64,000 nt of DNA from Sulfolobales archaeon (GCA_038867615.1 JAWBYA010000001.1:448001-512000); one strand, 5' to 3'. Positions 552 through 44,995 are shown, counted from the stretch's first letter. Notes: generated from the sequence alone by a model not told the origin. Numbers and translations are program-made.

Positions 552-1627
552 ATAGCATTTCTAGTATGGGAATATGCCAGAGAGATCACAGTAATAATAA
601 CCATTCTGGGCACCTTAATACCGATCCTAGCCACTCTTGGGGGTATGACATACCGGCTTGGAAGGAGGTTTGCATTAATAGAAGCAAGGTTTAGAGAAAT
701 AGACAGAAGATTCGAAGCTATAGACAAGAGATTCGAGAACATTGATAAAAGATTCAGCGAGCTAAAAGAATACGTAGATACAAGATTTAATGAATTAAAA
801 GTCTATGTTGATTCAAGGTTCAATGAATTGAGAGAATATGTTGACTCAAGGTTTGATGATCTGAAGGGCTATGTTGATTCTAGGGTTTTGAGAATCGCTG
901 AGGCTTTTAGATCTTACCAGGAGTTCTTCATAGAGTATCTATCTTATCAAGGCGTAATCAGGGCTCCTCTAGAGGCTGAAATGCTTAAGAACGAGGCTTC
1001 CAGAATGATGAAACTAGCAACAATGAACCCCCTAACCAAGGAGGAGTGGGAGAAGATCAAGTACTACTTAGAGAAGGATCAATTGACACTCGAAGAAGCA
1101 TTAGAATTCAGAGAGCTTGCTAGAAAGGTTACAGACGAGTATGGGGTTCGGGCTTCATTGCGGTTGATTTTTATACCAACTGCTCTTCCCTTGGCTTCAT
1201 GGGCCTCAGGGCTCCTTTCATTGGAGCCCTTATCATTGGCCTCCACCCATTCGGGGTGACCCTAACCCACAGCTCCCCTTCATAGATTTTCTCTGGTTCA
1301 TTGCTGTGGGGGAACCCCCACATCCTGGATCTCTTTACCTCTACCCCGCCCACTCGGGTCTCTATCCCCACCCTCATTGTTGGGCGGGCATCCCCATTAG
1401 AATAATAGAGCTTATATAATGTTCCACAGAGAAAAATTCGATATCAACCCCTATAAACCATCACGAAATCCGAAACAGCTGGCTACGGTGATAGACCTGA
1501 GGCTTGGAAGCTACACATACTAGCATCAATAAGAGTGGGAGAAGCGATGAGGAGAATGAAAGAAGAAATGGAGAAGAAGAAAGAGAAAGAAAAACAGGAG
1601 AAAGAAGGATCTAAGCAGGAAGGTTAG
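552..1627 (+). pseudogene. Membrane-anchored coiled-coil repeat protein (PaREP-like crenarchaeal family) interrupted by a 344 bp element
   Basis: 7-aa (RFxxIDK) and 11-aa (ELKxYVDSRFx) repeats. Removing 1145-1488 gives in-frame EYG-DRPEAWKLHILASIRVG... ending at TAG 1625-1627. A hydrophobic N-terminal segment is in frame from ATA 552; first ATG is at 645. Confidence 0.8.
1143..1488 (-). mobile_element. Non-autonomous IS607/IS200-605-like element (MITE), copy 1, carrying putative omega-RNA
   Basis: Closely matches 44335-44686 (inverted). GG at both junctions, no terminal inverted repeats. Internal TATA at 1411-1419. Interrupts an ORF. Confidence 0.85.
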
Positions 1628-10290: not shown

Positions 10291-11148
10291 TTAGTATGTT
10301 TGTCTAGTTAGCCTTGACATTATTAGTCTTCCTATGCGTGAGTCTTGTGTCTTATTAAATATGTGGGCGAGGGTTGTTCTTGTAAGTGGGTCTTCTCGGA
10401 ATTTGTGTATCATGTTTATGAGCCAGAGTGGGGGTGGGAGTTTGTATGGTGTTTCGAGGGCTCCTCTCTCGATCATGTGATTTATTTTTATGGAGAGCTT
10501 GAGTGCTGATTTGCATTTTAGCTCTTCTGCAAGTTTAAGGCTTTTAGCGCTTATCCAGCTCTTGGTTGTGATGTAATCGTTTAGCGTGTAGATCTGCTCC
10601 TTATATATGGCGTGGGATGCTGTGACGAGGGCTTCGGCGTATTTTTCGAGAACTCTTGCCTCGACGCCGCTGAATTCCGCGATCCCGGTGTGGTCTAAGA
10701 GCTTCTGGCCGTCGATGAAGATAATGCCCCCAACACTGGGTTGCGTATATAGGTCTATCATCGAGCCCCCCTTAGCTAGGGTTATGCAGTATGGATCCTT
10801 AACCACAAGCCTATACCCCAGCCCAGCGATGGTTTTAGTTATTTTCTTAGCCTGATCAGCTCTAACCAAAAGATCTATATCTGCTGGAACATAGCTTACA
10901 GGCTTAACAAGCTTGAAGAACGCGTAATCATAACCCCTCAGGATCTTCGACAAGACCCTTATAACCTCAACTACCCTCATCATAGCTCTCTCCTGCGAAG
11001 CTCTCAAAGAGCCCTCGATATTGAGGATCCTGAGTACATGGAGCAAAACCTTATTCCTCGAGGCAAACTCCACCAACATCACTGGATCTATATCTAGGCT
11101 ATGTCCCCTACCATCTAGAACATCGATTATCCTCTTAGTAAGAGTCAC
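10291..11148 (-). CDS. Uncharacterised nucleotidyltransferase (NTP_transf_5-like, Pol-beta fold)
   Basis: FFK...PADIDLLV...IDLY motif pattern. Confidence 0.7.
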   Translation of the reverse strand: MTLTKRIIDVLDGRGHSLDIDPVMLVEFASRNKVLLHVLRILNIEGSLRASQERAMMRVVEVIRVLSKILRGYDYAFFKLVKPVSYVPADIDLLVRADQAKKITKTIAGLGYRLVVKDPYCITLAKGGSMIDLYTQPSVGGIIFIDGQKLLDHTGIAEFSGVEARVLEKYAEALVTASHAIYKEQIYTLNDYITTKSWISAKSLKLAEELKCKSALKLSIKINHMIERGALETPYKLPPPLWLINMIHKFREDPLTRTTLAHIFNKTQDSRIGRLIMSRLTRQTY

Positions 11149-11187
11149 GGCATCTATCCCCCATTGTTAAACCTCCAGCCAGTATAC

Positions 11188-11823
11188 CTAACGCCTAAGC
11201 CTTATCCGGCGTTGAAGATAGCTCCAGAGCTCTGCTAGAGACTCCTCAACACTCCTGCCAGTCGTGTCAAGCTTAAAAGCGTTTAATTGCTTAGCCATTA
11301 TATCGTATAGCCTTAGCTGTCTCAAGATCTTGTTGCGACCCACATCATTCTTCCTCCTTAAGAGCTCCTCAGGCTCAGCTGCCACATAAACCATTATCTC
11401 AGCTCTTGATGCCAGCCCTAAGAGAAATCTTGCAGCAATAGAGTTCACGTAACGGGGATCCCTGGTGGTTAGCGCAACCCACACTATAAAGTCCGGAATA
11501 TATCTCTCAGCTATCACAGTATAGCCTAGAATGCTTGGAACAAGAAACTTAGCGAGAAGAACCGGTAACATGGATACGAATTCTATGAATTGCCACATCT
11601 TCTTAAGCCTCCTAGGGATGCGTATCCCATAGTATGGGTTATCAGAACCCCTAAACACGCTAAACCGTGACAGAAACTTGGCAAGCAGAGAGGCTGAAGT
11701 ATGTGTCCCCCTCATCCACGAAACCCTAACCCTGAAATTTTCGTTGTTTAGCCTTTTGGCTAAGATCTTAGCTAACGTGCTCTTGCCAGAGCCGTCTGGC
11801 CCAAAGAAGCAGATTATGGGCAT
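11188..11823 (-). CDS. Thymidylate-kinase-like P-loop kinase
   Basis: FFGPDGSGKST and VIAERY. Confidence 0.8.
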   Translation of the reverse strand: MPIICFFGPDGSGKSTLAKILAKRLNNENFRVRVSWMRGTHTSASLLAKFLSRFSVFRGSDNPYYGIRIPRRLKKMWQFIEFVSMLPVLLAKFLVPSILGYTVIAERYIPDFIVWVALTTRDPRYVNSIAARFLLGLASRAEIMVYVAAEPEELLRRKNDVGRNKILRQLRLYDIMAKQLNAFKLDTTGRSVEESLAELWSYLQRRIRLRR

Positions 11824-11904
11824 TTTATATTAATTAAATTGATTCCGCAATTATCACAAAATACTCATACAGTACTACATTGGGTGTTACTTTTAACTCT
11901 TCGT

Positions 11905-12650
11905 GTGTGAGGGTCAGGATCTACCAACATTACCGCTTTTGCACGTTTCGTATTGTTTGCACTAAATATAAGATAGAGCGGCCTAAATCATCTATCAGAT
12001 AAGGCTTTATTGAGAGCTTGTTAAACAAGAATTTTAGTAAGGAGCCTAAAATTCTTCTCAGCAATATCCTTCTTTTAGCTCTTTTTCCTCTGTAAACGCT
12101 GATCACCTTGAAGCTGTGATATTTTAGAAGAGCAAGGAGTTCACCTAAATAATATTCCTTTTATGTTGAGGATTAAGAGGGTGTGGCAGTAGCGGTGAAC
12201 TATACATTTTATTTGGGGTACTAAGAATCAACCTTCCCCCTCTTTCTAAGACACGTTTGATCTCATTAAGAAAAGCATTATGATCTTCTATATGTTCTAG
12301 CGTCTTGAGGGAAACTACTGTATCAAAGCTATACTCTCCAAAAGGAAGGTGTGTAGCATCCGCGCATACACAGTCAGCACCGTAAACCATTCTCCCATAT
12401 CGGAGGGAATCTACATCCAAATATCCAAATCTACACTCACGACGGCTTTAACAGCACTACTCCTTCTTAGGATACTAGACCCACAGCAAGTGCCTGATGC
12501 AACATCTAATACTATTCCGTAGGCAAACTTAGAGGCAAATAAATATCTTGAAATATGCTCACTAGCTGTCTCGTTGCTACACCATCTGAGCAAGATAAGT
12601 TCTGGGATTTTGGTGTCGGGATCTATAGGATTTTCCGGACTAGGTTAATA
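11905..12650 (-). pseudogene. Class I SAM methyltransferase pseudogene (frameshifted)
   Basis: EHISRYLFA...VLDVASG in one frame, ADATHLPF...LEHI...LILSTPN in another; ends approximate. Confidence 0.75.
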
Positions 12651-12657
12651 AGTTCGG

Positions 12658-13407
12658 TTATTTCGTCTCACCCATTAGTTGTTCCTTTATTAGTTGGTGC
12701 ACTTTTTCTGGGGTTTGCTTACTTGTATTCACGTAGAGTAGACCATTAGATGAAAGCTCTTTTGAAACTTGGAGGAGTAATGTGCGTTGTATATTTATAT
12801 AATCGCCTCTTTCATCGGGACTTCCTCTGCGTTTCCAACGATGCTTTAACTCGCTGTTTTCAGCGTCTAAGAAAATTATCTGTGTGAAGCCTCCTAGCTG
12901 CATGAGCCTTAATAGGAAAATAACGGTGAAAGATCGAGGTCTAAGCGACAATCCTATGGTTCTACTCAAATATAAGTAATCAGATATTGTAGCTGGGATG
13001 TACTCTTCCACAAGTATAGTGTAGCCGAGCTTTAGAGGGATATATATGTTAAAAAGGAACTTCAGAGAGACACTAATAATATCTAATGCTAGCCATAGCC
13101 TGAAGATCCTCCTAAAGATGTGAGGTTTCTCTGCAACAAGAGCTCCTATCGGGTATAGATCTCTTCTCCTAGTAAGCATCTTAGCTAAGAGAATCGTTAG
13201 AATGTAAGCAAAGACGTGTCCCGATTTCAGGAAGGTTACTCTAACTTTAACCCCTCTACGTCTTAGCTCTGAGGCTAAAAGCCGCATATGTGTCGACTTT
13301 CCAGACCCTACAGAGCCGGAAAACACTATTATACGCATGCGAAACACCATTATAGCATACACTCGATCTATGGTGTCTAGTAAACTGCCATAGTGCTTAA
13401 ATAACAC
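12658..13407 (-). CDS. Thymidylate-kinase-like P-loop kinase (second paralogue)
   Basis: FSGSVGSGKST and ILVEEY. True start probably at MRIIVF. Confidence 0.75.
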   Translation of the reverse strand: MLFKHYGSLLDTIDRVYAIMVFRMRIIVFSGSVGSGKSTHMRLLASELRRRGVKVRVTFLKSGHVFAYILTILLAKMLTRRRDLYPIGALVAEKPHIFRRIFRLWLALDIISVSLKFLFNIYIPLKLGYTILVEEYIPATISDYLYLSRTIGLSLRPRSFTVIFLLRLMQLGGFTQIIFLDAENSELKHRWKRRGSPDERGDYINIQRTLLLQVSKELSSNGLLYVNTSKQTPEKVHQLIKEQLMGETK

Positions 13408-39351: not shown

Positions 39352-39540
39352 CGGTTAATATCTCCTCGTATCAACCACTCCACACAGCTCCCAGATCTCA
39401 GGACTCCAATGAGTAGAGCCCTTATCACCAGTCTCCATACATTCAGAGCAACTCCTACCCACAGCTCCTCTTTATATTATTCCTGCCAGACTCATTGCTA
39501 TAGTGAACCCTCGCATCCCGATTCTTACCCAGCCCGCTTA
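39334..39540 (-). mobile_element. Decayed copy 3 of the 1143-1488 element
   Basis: Colinear blocks gggactcgagcctcatagcggtt, ctcaggactcc, gagcccttatca, acccacagctcc, cattgcta, cgcatcc; supplies the MarR stop codon. Confidence 0.75.
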
Positions 39541-42488: not shown

Positions 42489-43331
42489 ATGCGGAGCGGG
42501 ATGAGTGAGAAAGATATAGAGAGGGCTTTGCTCGAGATCCTGAGAACAAGATCTAGGGAGCTTGTAGAGGCTATTCTGAATACCATCGAGACAAGCGATG
42601 ATCTCATGCTAAGACTCGCATCAATAGTCTCCAAAAGACTAGCAATACCCCTTAATGTGGCTACCCAGAGTGATCTAAAAGCTCTCGAAGGCACGATCAG
42701 ATCCGAGATCGCCGGTCTCGGACAGAGGATCACTGGTTTAGAATCTACTTTGAAGTCTGAGGTTTCAAGGCTTGATCAGAGGATCACCGGTCTGGATCAA
42801 AGAATCGCAGGACTTGATCAGAGAGTTTCTGGTTTAGAGTCTACTTTGAAGTCCGAAGTCTCAAAACTAGATCAGAGGATTGCTGGGCTTGATCAGAGGA
42901 TCGGTAAGGTTGAGGGTGAGTTAAGCAAAGTTAGGAGAACGGTTAGGGATATTGCAAGAACTATTGAGAACATAACAATCTCTATCGAGGAGGAGGCCAG
43001 GATTGCTGTGGAGAGGTTTTTAAAAGAGAGAGGTTTGGAGATAAGCATCAGGCCTATCGTGCTTGATAGGAGGTATGAGTTCGATATATACGGCTCGCGC
43101 GATGGTTTCGTGATCGTTGGTGAAGCTAAGACAAAGGCTAGTGAGAGGCTTGTTGACAGGCTTGCAAAGAGAATCGAGGAGGCTAGAAAGAAATGGCCAG
43201 AGAAATTCACAGGCAACGTTATTATGGTGCTTTACTGCCTAAAATACATAGGCGACCCCAAGAAAGCCGAAGAAAAGGGAGTATGGCTAATAGAATCCTC
43301 GAGGGAGCTAACAAAAATCCCCCTGGCCTAG
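42489..43331 (+). CDS. Coiled-coil repeat protein with C-terminal PD-(D/E)XK-like domain
   Basis: Heptad repeats (I.GLDQR) with a 96 bp internal duplication; EFDIYG...GEAKT. Confidence 0.75.
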   Translation: MRSGMSEKDIERALLEILRTRSRELVEAILNTIETSDDLMLRLASIVSKRLAIPLNVATQSDLKALEGTIRSEIAGLGQRITGLESTLKSEVSRLDQRITGLDQRIAGLDQRVSGLESTLKSEVSKLDQRIAGLDQRIGKVEGELSKVRRTVRDIARTIENITISIEEEARIAVERFLKERGLEISIRPIVLDRRYEFDIYGSRDGFVIVGEAKTKASERLVDRLAKRIEEARKKWPEKFTGNVIMVLYCLKYIGDPKKAEEKGVWLIESSRELTKIPLA

Positions 43332-43490: not shown

Positions 43491-44334
43491 GTATGGGCTG
43501 TAGCTAGATATGCTTCTGGATTGCTGCAGCGAGTATAGGGTCTGGTACTGTGTAGTGTTCGTCTCGCTTCTCTATCAAGCCTGCCTTGATGAGTTTCTGG
43601 AGAAGTGTGTTGAAATTATGATCATCTATCTCTATACCCTCGCTGAACTCTAGCGCTCTTTTCAGCTCGCTCCACCTTATAGGCTTCTGCGAGGCTAGCT
43701 TGAGTATCGTTCTGAACCTCTTCACGGATCTTGTTCTTGCTAGGAATCTCTTCACCTCTTCTGCCTCTTGTCTAGAGGCGGTGTCCACTATATTCTCAAG
43801 ATCCCTTACACCGTTTACATAGCTCCACCCGAAAAAGGTTAGCCAGCCTATGAGGCCGTCGAGCCTCTCAACAGCCTCCTCGATCACATGCCTGCTAACC
43901 GCAACACTAGACTCGCTGAAACCTCTCTCGAGAAAATCTATAGACTCGCTTCTAGAAAGCCTCTTAACCCTCACCTCGGACACAAGCCTCCCATAGAGAG
44001 GACTCTCGGGATCTTCAATGCCCAGCATGTCATAGAGTAACCCGACCTGAGAGCCGGATAGGATCACGACAAGGTTTCTCAGATGATCATATGTATAGGC
44101 AAGCAGCTTTGAGAAATCCAGATTCAGAGGCAACAGTTCTTGGAGCTCGTCGAAAACCAGGGCAAGCCTTATACCCTCGTTTTCTGCAAACATGTTTAAG
44201 GTTTCTAGGAGGGTGGCTATATTGAATCTCTCCCTCCTCTTCCACCTCAAGGAGATCCTAGCGATGGAAAAATCAACCTCAACACCACTAACACCCCTCA
44301 GAAGACCCAGCAACCTATCAGCGAAACCCCTATG

Positions 44335-44686
44335 CCGTAGCCAGCTGTTTCAGGTTTCATGATGGTTTATAGGGGTTGATATTGAATCGTAGTTCTACAA
44401 TAATGGAACATTATATAAGCTCTGTATTTTATTGGGATGCCTGCCCAGCAATGAGGGTGGAGATAGAGACCCGAGTGGGTGGGTTAAATAAAAAGCCCAG
44501 GATGTGGGGGTTTCCCCACAGCTATGAACCCGAGCAATGCTATGAAGGGGAGCTGTGGGTTGGGGTCACCCTGAATGGGTGGAGGCCAATGATATGGGCT
44601 CCGATGAAAGGAGCCCTGAGGCCTATGAAGCCAAGGGCTGAGCGGTTGATATCAAGCAATATCAACCGTAGTGAAGCCCGAACCCC
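44335..44686 (+). mobile_element. Non-autonomous IS607/IS200-605-like element, copy 2
   Basis: Starts CCGTAGCCAGCTGTTTC, ends GAAGCCCGAACCCC, TATA at 44411-44419; colinear with copy 1. Confidence 0.85.
44434..44686 (+). ncRNA. Putative omega-RNA-like structured RNA with three kink-turns
   Basis: Downstream of a TATA box; helices and GA/GA motifs conserved between copies 1 and 2; 5' end approximate. Confidence 0.6.
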
Positions 44687-44904
44687 CTGCGAGGCCCTAC
44701 AACGGCCACAAGCCTGGCATTCCTATAGCTCCTATAGAGGTTCTCAAGCTCCTCGGCAAAATCATACAGATCCTTCCTAGAGGTCTTAGGAGCTAAATCA
44801 AAGAGCAGAACCACCACCAGTAACTGGTGCTTATACCAGTTAATAAACAGCGAAACACCCACACATAAGATAACATTAAAATACACAAGCACAGAGCATG
44901 ACTA

Positions 44905-44995
44905 AAAGCAGAGATAAGGAGGCATGGTTAATAGAATCCTTAAGAGAGCTGACAAAGATCCTATATGATCTAGTGCGAGCATCCATTACCTAGAT
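44905..44995 (+). repeat. Degenerate direct copy of the 3' end of the 42489-43331 gene
   Basis: ggcatggttaatagaatccttaagagagctgacaaagatcc vs agtatggctaatagaatcctcgagggagctaacaaaaatcc (~43263-43350). Confidence 0.7.

Follow-up and report, generated by a model that had tools for sequence, protein, structure and literature searches.

What kind of RNA is encoded at 44434-44686 in a stretch of the genome of a hot-spring Sulfolobales archaeon, and why does its sequence hold the signature of a kink-turn (K-turn) three times over? The question arose from an initial annotation of 64,000 nucleotides of this genome (GCA_038867615.1 JAWBYA010000001.1:448001-512000; hereafter the window, with positions counted from its first letter), in which the region was proposed to specify a thermophilic omega RNA, the guide RNA that works with TnpB, scaffolded by the host protein L7Ae. 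Judged from its relatives, this region makes up the RNA-coding 3' two-thirds of a ~351-bp miniature inverted-repeat transposable element (MITE) derived from a tnpB-only IS200/IS605 (IS1341-type) element. The structure of its scaffold is, by comparison with homologues, real and widespread, and the three K-turns differ in how far they extend among those homologues.

The parent can be recognized in the same genome. Positions 163-352 of the MITE follow the same order as the last ~190 nt of a 1.57-kb element (C1:~11135-12700) whose sole gene is an intact 457-codon tnpB (C1:11373-12743, equal to L033:1501-2826); the encoded TnpB matches PF07282 and, in the PDB, ISDra2 TnpB at an E value of 2.5e-17. 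A frameshifted sister element is found at C1:50095-51743. The MITE is multi-copy, carries neither a transposase nor a tnpB gene, and has its ends in common with the autonomous element. It arose by two internal deletions in a tnpB element, one from just past the promoter to the zinc-finger coding region and the other, of ~90 nt, from the zinc-finger coding region to the scaffold core. Nearly all of tnpB was lost; both ends were retained, and between them the tnpB TATA box, the zinc-finger-coding stem and the complete omega-RNA scaffold. The identification of the region as an omega RNA is upheld by this correspondence of MITE positions 163-352 with the tnpB 3' end and right end, and by the occurrence of the same scaffold 3' of TnpB homologues in 76 loci.

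The three motifs of stem, 3-nt bulge, GA...GA and second stem, along with the terminal hairpin, were all located, just as the initial annotation gave them, in this copy of the MITE (copy A), and the three motifs are present again in a second copy of the window (copy B, 1143-1488, minus strand, 85% identical to copy A). All features of copy A given here are on the plus strand. The K-turn 1 module (44440-44483) comes from the zinc-finger (CxxC) coding stem of tnpB. Read off the window sequence, its 5' strand is CCTGCCCAGC-AAT-GA-GGGT at 44440-44458 (bulge AAT 44450-52, GA 44453-54) and its 3' strand ACCC-GA-GTGGGTGGG at 44469-44483 (GA 44473-74). K-turn 2 is part of helix P2 (44514-44559), where CCCCACAGC-TAT-GA at 44514-44527 faces GA-GCTGTGGG at 44550-44559; here the canonical (C) stem is 44514-22/44552-59, the bulge TAT 44523-25, and the GA dinucleotides 44526-27 and 44550-51. 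K-turn 3 (44584-44623) reads GGCC-AAT-GA-TAT-GGGCTCC at 44584-44602, followed by the loop GATGAAA, and GGAGCCC-T-GA-GGCC at 44610-44623. Its C stem GGCC lies at 44584-87/44620-23, its bulge AAT at 44588-90, its GA dinucleotides at 44591-92 and 44618-19, and its inner hairpin, GGGCTCC/GGAGCCC, at 44596-602/44610-16. The sequence pattern of a K-turn (C helix, 3-nt bulge, tandem G.A/A.G, non-canonical (NC) helix and Watson-Crick -1b:-1n) is found at all three sites, the C helix of K-turn 1 having only 2 bp ahead of a bulged A. The omega-RNA core scaffold, the 187 positions of the covariance model R1 described below, spans 44500-44686 and is closed by GGGGGTT (44506-12) pairing with GAACCCC (44680-86). 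It also contains a small hairpin P3 (44567-44581, CACCC/GGGTG) and the subterminal right-end hairpin (44642-44652/44659-44669, 11-bp arms and the loop CAAGCA). The initial annotation had further held that several differences between the copies fall in loops or keep the pairing. Stem 1 of copy B (CCCGCCCA/TGGGCGGG) does still pair, but its two differences from copy A are G-C to G-U changes and not double compensatory ones.

Folding of 44434-44686 as plus-strand RNA gives a minimum free energy of -109.4 kcal/mol (z of -4.68 against 200 shuffles) and a structure that includes every helix flanking the three loops; the fold of the minus strand is less stable by 14 kcal/mol. The count of motifs is another matter. 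A strict K-turn descriptor (4-bp C stem, NNN-GA, spacer, GA, some NC pairing) matches twice in the 253 nt, at K-turns 2 and 3, and K-turn 1 passes only a descriptor with a 2-bp C stem. Two thousand dinucleotide shuffles yield a mean of 0.43 strict matches, with two or more in 152 of them; genome-wide the strict descriptor matches 1.9 times per kb per strand, and loose descriptors ~2 times per kb anywhere. An excess of three K-turns over chance by motif count alone was thus rejected, the strict descriptor not being significant, and the case for K-turns 2 and 3 rests on comparison with homologues. Rfam at gathering thresholds returned only a tRNA for the whole window, and a permissive search of 44300-44720 returned only chance-level matches, the best relevant one being sR9 (RF01312) at 14.7 bits against a 36-bit cut-off (E 3.4). 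Identity as a box C/D small RNA was considered and discarded, as this sub-threshold match comes without a C'/D' pair and without a methylation guide.

For the comparison, TnpB homologues were taken from 53 of the 121 genomes of the order, and 79 further loci from Desulfurococcaceae, Ignisphaera, Acidilobus, Thermogladius, Sulfolobaceae, Archaeoglobaceae, Thermococcus, Methanocaldococcaceae, Baldrarchaeota, Methanomethylicota and Asgard-related metagenome-assembled genomes. Scaffold cores, 29 in all, were aligned with MAFFT, and RNAalifold derived 38 pairs from them, nine with double changes; the covariance model R1 built from the result found 76 matches over 92 loci. Nearly all of these cover model positions 1-187 and lie directly at, or overlap, the 3' end of a TnpB homologue. 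In the homologues too, the scaffold is conserved up to the element end and is followed by copy-specific sequence. Covariation had been named in the initial annotation among the ways to check the proposal. Run with the covariance model, this check gave a score of 0.460 against 0.160 for shuffled alignments (reached by 0 of 500) and at most 0.123 when partners were slid by 1-3 columns; 90.6% of cells in the 76-sequence alignment (A3) are paired against 70.7% when shuffled, counts that are favored by the fitting of A3 to the model's structure. The MAFFT alignment repeats the exchanges, as in the inner-hairpin pair that is C-G in 11 sequences, U-A in 10 and A-U in 3. Double changes are seen among the 76 sequences in 5/5 pairs of the right-end hairpin (helix 7).

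K-turn 3 is the most constant of the three motifs. Its 5' GA is present in 73 of the 76 sequences, its 3' strand reads GA in 68 (AA in 6, GG in 1, a gap in 1), and GA stands on both strands in 66; these counts were taken from alignment columns, as automatic listing chose spurious partners once AA was allowed. The helices around it change in concert: the 4-bp C stem has double changes in 3/4 pairs and is 92.5% paired, the inner hairpin has them in 6/6 pairs and is 96.4% paired. The C stem occurs as GGCC/GGCC, GCCC/GGGC, GACC/GGTC, GGGG/CTCC, GCGT/ACGC and others. Sulfolobaceae members of the clade carry K-turn 3, and it is visible in the R1 matches from 13 of 61 Thermococcales genomes, with the C stems GGCC/GGCT or GCGT/ACGC. 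The tnpB frame crosses the scaffold, and a constraint from the protein therefore needed excluding. Among the 68 homologues with an assignable frame, that frame is open through most of the scaffold, most stop at a conserved TGA that is 12 nt (or 5 nt) short of the right end, and in eight the frame passes the element end, as it does by 43 nt in the insertion sequence (IS) of this genome. The G1b nucleotide of K-turn 3 is a third codon base in 38 sequences and a first one in 21, G2n a first base in 39 and a third in 20, and the residues encoded by the GA dinucleotides vary by lineage (M/V versus D/E; E/D versus L/P). With the GA in several codon phases, it is the nucleotide that is constrained, not the residue. 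Judged from these alignments, K-turn 3 is an ancient core feature conserved across the whole archaeal clade, which is a useful new point. We take K-turn 3 (AATGAT...CTGA) to resemble the box C/D motif, and K-turn 2 (GC-NNT-GA-AC/GG-GA-GC) to resemble ribosomal Kt-7. As a separate observation, the loop GATGAA(A) that caps the K-turn 3 hairpin (44603-44609) is nearly invariant throughout the clade, even where the stem beneath it is wholly different, and is likely a protein or tertiary contact.

K-turn 2 has a narrower range. In the 29 Desulfurococcales-type cores its 5' GA is invariant and its 3' GA is present in 28-29, and among the 76 sequences its C stem shows double changes in 7/7 pairs (98.3% paired). 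The descriptor finds the motif at the base of P2 in 33 of the 76. It recurs with unrelated stems in members from Baldrarchaeota and Archaeoglobaceae (e.g., CTTC-AAT-GA...GA-GAAG), and Sulfolobaceae-type members have a plain hairpin instead. On present alignments K-turn 2 characterizes the Desulfurococcales-type subfamily and also occurs in a few members distant from it. The claim of three K-turns thus stands clade-wide for K-turn 3 and subfamily-wide for K-turn 2, but not for K-turn 1, which is confined to the MITE lineage. At the site of K-turn 1 every TnpB-linked element has GC, not GA, on the 5' strand, since the parent reads a Cys codon TGC there, and GA would create a stop codon. Among the genome copies that span the site, 36 of 55 have the 5' GA, and on the 3' side 31 of 56 have GA and 18 have AA. 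In tnpB, the sequence that encodes the CxxC zinc finger folds into a stem of 7-9 bp, in which the codons for T-C-P pair with those for V-G-R. This stem covaries across lineages, with paired non-synonymous compensations, and so it probably belongs to the RNA. K-turn 1 may be an adaptive gain after release from coding or a founder mutation. The data illustrate how a guide RNA within a coding region lies under two constraints and how it changes once a MITE escapes one of them.

The proteins attached to this scaffold have a feature of their own. All 12 aligned TnpBs of the clade (with homologues L036-L057) have an invariant Arg-Gln where ISDra2 has R360-D361, D361 being the catalytic RuvC-III Asp; the residue ahead of it is Asp or Asn, and the RuvC-I Asp and RuvC-II Glu are retained. 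RuvC-III-rearranged, largely archaeal TnpB branches have been described (Altae-Tran 2023, PMC10691335; here and below, citations with PMC numbers refer to the parts of the papers available to us), and the Gln-for-Asp clade fits these branches by its alignment. The genome encodes a second TnpB family at C6:23927-25287, with a protein identity of 39-43%. In the scaffolds of that family (C6:25040-25180; L046, L049, L050, L098, L102, L108) P2 holds a conserved asymmetric internal loop, 5' RA-GCA facing 3' ..GGATGA, which by eye is like an opposite-strand K-turn with a 4-nt bulge.

A basis for why such K-turns should be kept can now be proposed. The archaeal L7Ae is abundant in the cell and binds tightly to almost any accessible consensus K-turn, and it stabilizes the fold of box C/D and H/ACA RNAs and of RNase P RNA. 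The L7Ae gene of this genome is at C1:162293-162571 (TIGR03677, 140.6 bits against a cut-off of 134.6), with L30e encoded separately. The conservation of K-turns across archaea argues that L7Ae probably helps to build the RNA-guided complex. Transcription from the TATA box would give a scaffold of ~250 nt followed by a guide from the flanking DNA. The TnpB of the intact element (C1:11373-12743) would load this MITE RNA in trans, and the most likely role of the K-turns would be to bind abundant host L7Ae. L7Ae would fix the sharp bends and stabilize the fold of the large RNA at high temperature, as in box C/D, H/ACA and RNase P, and the ribonucleoprotein (RNP) so assembled would recognize a target beside a short left-flank motif. 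Co-option of L7Ae by the omega RNA is plausible, and recruitment of L7Ae by the K-turns is in our analysis the best explanation and a fairly probable one; L7Ae as a subunit of archaeal TnpB RNPs is a good lead.

Several points weigh against this explanation. The motif count is within chance and the pairing counts are favored by the way in which A3 was made, as given above. The NC side of K-turn 3 is irregular, with TAT facing T, position 2n is A in 6 of 76 sequences, and G1n occurs in one. K-turn 2 is dispensable for part of the clade, given the plain hairpin of the Sulfolobaceae-type members. K-turn 1 is missing, by the GC at its site, from every element that carries tnpB, and could be a mutation that hitch-hiked with the MITE founder. 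With Gln at the position of ISDra2 D361, the nuclease activity of the clade is uncertain. S. islandicus TnpB1, which belongs to another branch, is able to cleave DNA when its RNP has been purified from E. coli, and hence in the absence of L7Ae (PMC10640517). Lastly, across the 134 nhmmer matches in this genome the GA columns are conserved at 0.55-0.93 against a mean column of 0.81; with GA columns no better kept than the average column, single MITE copies look neutral.

It is from these copies that the most serious alternative draws its strength, namely that MITE copy A is an inert relic whose motifs are inherited from the parent or, for K-turn 1, arose by chance, with no functional RNA coming from 44434-44686. 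Many copies are deletion variants or decayed, their GA columns are no better conserved than others, and K-turn 1 is absent from the autonomous elements; the sequencing runs listed for the stretch include no RNA run. In copy A, however, the TATA box is intact and no helix or GA pair is missing, and the genome also has an intact tnpB. The TATA box (TTATATAA, 44411-44418, plus strand) is kept in 16 aligned MITEs and precedes the tnpB start codon in the parent IS, where it is ~30 nt ahead of the ATG; a transcript start near 44438-44442 would be predicted from it. We consider the relic explanation unlikely, although it is the strongest of the alternatives.

Next comes the view that the K-turns are real RNA architecture but independent of L7Ae, folded by tertiary contacts or by TnpB itself. 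Bacterial riboswitch K-turns do fold through tertiary contacts. Conservation and covariation bear on the RNA motif and not on its ligand, and the activity of the archaeal TnpB of another branch from E. coli without L7Ae (PMC10640517) is in keeping with such independence. On the other side, L7Ae is encoded in this very genome, is abundant and is a tight binder of nearly any accessible consensus K-turn. In agreement with its involvement, RNAs from the 3' end of OrfB bind L7Ae in vitro and lose this binding upon GA mutation (PMC3124441). An L7Ae-independent fold therefore seems to us distinctly improbable.

The pattern could also be a signal at the level of DNA, right-end single-stranded hairpins for the transposase rather than RNA. 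The ends of IS200/IS605 elements have subterminal hairpins that are read as single-stranded DNA; the hairpin at 44642-44669 is of this subterminal type, and the left end repeats part of it (GTTGATAT). This hairpin is probably both a right-end transposition signal and the last helix of the RNA. The conserved structure, however, extends over ~190-250 nt, far beyond a transposase end site, and the scaffold stops exactly at the guide start. Many of its helices need G-U pairs, which would be A-C on the other strand; the frequency of G-U pairs and the better fold of the plus strand argue that the structure is that of an RNA from the sense strand of tnpB. The assembly is 94% complete, and a search of it for a Y1 transposase came back empty. 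A purely DNA-level signal is thus very improbable. Least tenable of all is that the conservation reflects the protein, with GA as a by-product of a conserved TnpB C-terminal tail: the frame is open through most of the scaffold and ends at a conserved TGA near the right end in most of the 68 homologues, but this explanation is already contradicted for K-turn 3, whose GA occurs in different codon phases and encodes different residues by lineage, while the flanking helices covary and gene-less MITEs retain the structure.

The recruitment of L7Ae can also be stated in a stronger form, in which L7Ae is an obligate third subunit of a pan-archaeal, RuvC-III-rearranged, tnpB-only clade with long omega RNA. 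K-turn 3 and lineage-specific K-turns would nucleate folding through L7Ae, and the promoter-driven MITE omega RNAs, freed from coding, would have gained the L7Ae site of K-turn 1. We regard this form as possible but short of probable. Were it true, box C/D RNPs would have in these particles a counterpart that targets DNA, an explanation would be at hand for the 'transposase-related' RNAs reported as L7Ae-bound in 2005 and 2011, and TnpB reconstitution would need L7Ae, or SNU13 in eukaryotic cells. Binding of L7Ae would by itself make of a large uncharacterized archaeal TnpB clade a three-part RNP, composed of TnpB, omega RNA and a host ribosomal/snoRNP protein. It would be the first host-factor requirement for an OMEGA (obligate mobile element-guided activity) system and a rationale for the addition of L7Ae when thermophilic TnpBs are reconstituted, and the 15-20-year-old L7Ae-bound 'transposase RNAs' would be re-read as guide RNAs.

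The extent of the MITE was defined from its copies. In the 2.2-Mb genome the repeat is matched 53 times by sequence search, 107 times by blastn pieces or 134 times by nhmmer; 16 copies are full-length, and many others are internal-deletion variants or decayed. Alignment of the 16 with their flanks gives a common stretch from (G)CCRTAGCC to GAACCCC with unrelated DNA outside, and neither inverted termini nor target duplications are visible in them. Copy A spans 44334-44686 on the plus strand, ending in ...GAACCCC at 44686 and with a left boundary that is certain within 1-2 nt. The only constant base at the left junction is G (16/17), or GC, so that target motif and element end are inseparable there. 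The left end proper (44335-44390, plus strand) is the same as in the autonomous IS at C1:11135 and C1:50095. The flanks differ in every copy right after ...ACCCC, and from the OMEGA/TnpB mechanism the guide segment is accordingly predicted at 44687-44706 (plus strand), in the flanking DNA past the right end, with a length assumed from other TnpB systems. Through the retained tnpB TATA box each MITE copy is a self-contained cassette of promoter plus guide RNA; a TATA-like box is also seen upstream of a solo copy from Thermococcales (L147).

Copy A splits an ATPase gene on the minus strand, the C-terminal part of which (PF01637 and a winged helix-turn-helix) lies at 43504-44313 and the upstream part at 44689-44892. 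Excision of 351 nt (44336-44686) gives a single 348-codon frame across the joint, and a single frame is restored only if 351 or 354 nt are taken out, which suggests that G44334 and C44335 are part of the target motif and not of the element. An empty-site form was not found in the contigs of four DNA sequencing runs, where the depth is only repeat-level. One metagenome contig from run X1 passes from 44686 straight back to 44332; this right-end-to-left-end junction may stem from circular excision, from a tandem copy or from an assembly artefact caused by the repeat. A contig of a ~9%-divergent strain in run X3 carries 154 other letters instead of 349 nt of the MITE. The Y1 TnpA transposase (PF01797) was not found in the 94%-complete assembly, where absence is no proof, and the elements are classed on this ground as IS1341-type, tnpB-only. 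The genome holds more than 100 MITE/IS fragments, yet no Y1 TnpA was found with them. A deletion-variant MITE (C1:163303-163596) lies ~730 bp downstream of the L7Ae gene, probably by coincidence. Elsewhere in the window, a degenerate fragment of the scaffold, ~73% identical and covering the K-turn 3 region, is found at 39397-39484 (minus strand). A coiled-coil open reading frame (42489-43331) contains a 96-nt tandem repeat (42708-42899), and its 3' end (43271-43320) is 80% identical to 44912-44961, just past the gene split by the MITE, a paralogous module. A blastn search against a phage collection gave no match.

The link between L7Ae and transposon RNAs is old in substance, from Pyrococcus and Sulfolobus, and its statement in TnpB terms was not found in the literature searched; none of the papers found by our searches on TnpB or IS1341 with K-turns or L7Ae describes K-turns in natural omega RNAs. 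The closest known RNAs are sRkB/sRkC and sRk48/sRk52 of P. abyssi, small RNAs that resemble the sense 3' end of OrfB (TnpB) of IS200/IS605, with two K-turns there. sRkB/sRkC come from repetitive intergenic loci with their own BRE/TATA (TFB-recognition element and TATA box) promoters, and one paralog of these loci is formed by the 3' end of an orphan IS605/IS200 OrfB (Phok et al. 2011, BMC Genomics, PMC3124441). With L7Ae they form at least two complexes in electrophoretic mobility shift assays, two K-turns stand out in T1 footprints, the shift disappears when the sheared GA pairs are mutated, and sRk52 binds L7Ae via a K-loop (PMC3124441). Their description predates an understanding of TnpB and omega RNA, and they were read then as possible cis-regulators (PMC3124441). 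Unlike the present element they belong to another phylum, and the likeness is one of description, their KT1/KT2 being at most putative homologues of K-turns 2/3. In S. solfataricus, small RNAs linked to transposase open reading frames were reported to bind L7Ae through a K-turn (PMC3124441). These RNAs of Zago, Dennis and Omer (2005), known to us via PMC3124441, PMC4615843 and PMC3432209, are likewise sense, overlap transposase genes and were recovered with L7Ae, co-immunoprecipitation with L7Ae being the method of Zago 2005 (PMC3432209). The main text of an S. acidocaldarius L7Ae study by RNA immunoprecipitation sequencing is, in its available part, without transposase-related words, and its Table S1 (6 unknown small RNAs, 32 mRNA fragments) may bear on the claim (PMC5539422).

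Two further systems frame the comparison, and a third gives the motif its meaning. The H. salinarum sotRNAs are sense-overlapping RNAs at the 3' end of tnpB-only IS1341-type elements, with intergenic copies too (Gomes-Filho 2015, PMC4615843), and like the present RNA they have a stable right-end-like hairpin near the end; K-turns and L7Ae are unmentioned in the available part of that text (PMC4615843). For ISDra2-type omega RNA, the papers found do not describe a natural K-turn or a host protein partner. As reportedly established by Karvelis 2021, Altae-Tran 2021 and Nety 2023, the TnpB omega RNA (also right-end element RNA, reRNA) lies at the tnpB 3' end, overlapping the open reading frame and the right end, and is followed by a flank-derived guide. 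The RNA described here is like that of ISDra2 in its place at the tnpB 3' end, its guide from the flank and its homologous protein, and unlike it in its longer scaffold, its two to three K-turns, its occurrence also as promoter-bearing MITEs and the Gln at the RuvC-III Asp position of its TnpB. With the archaeal L7Ae-K-turn RNPs, that is box C/D, H/ACA, RNase P RNA, signal recognition particle RNA and the l7ae mRNA leader (PMC5539422), it has in common the C stem, the 3-nt bulge, the tandem G.A pairs and the NC stem.

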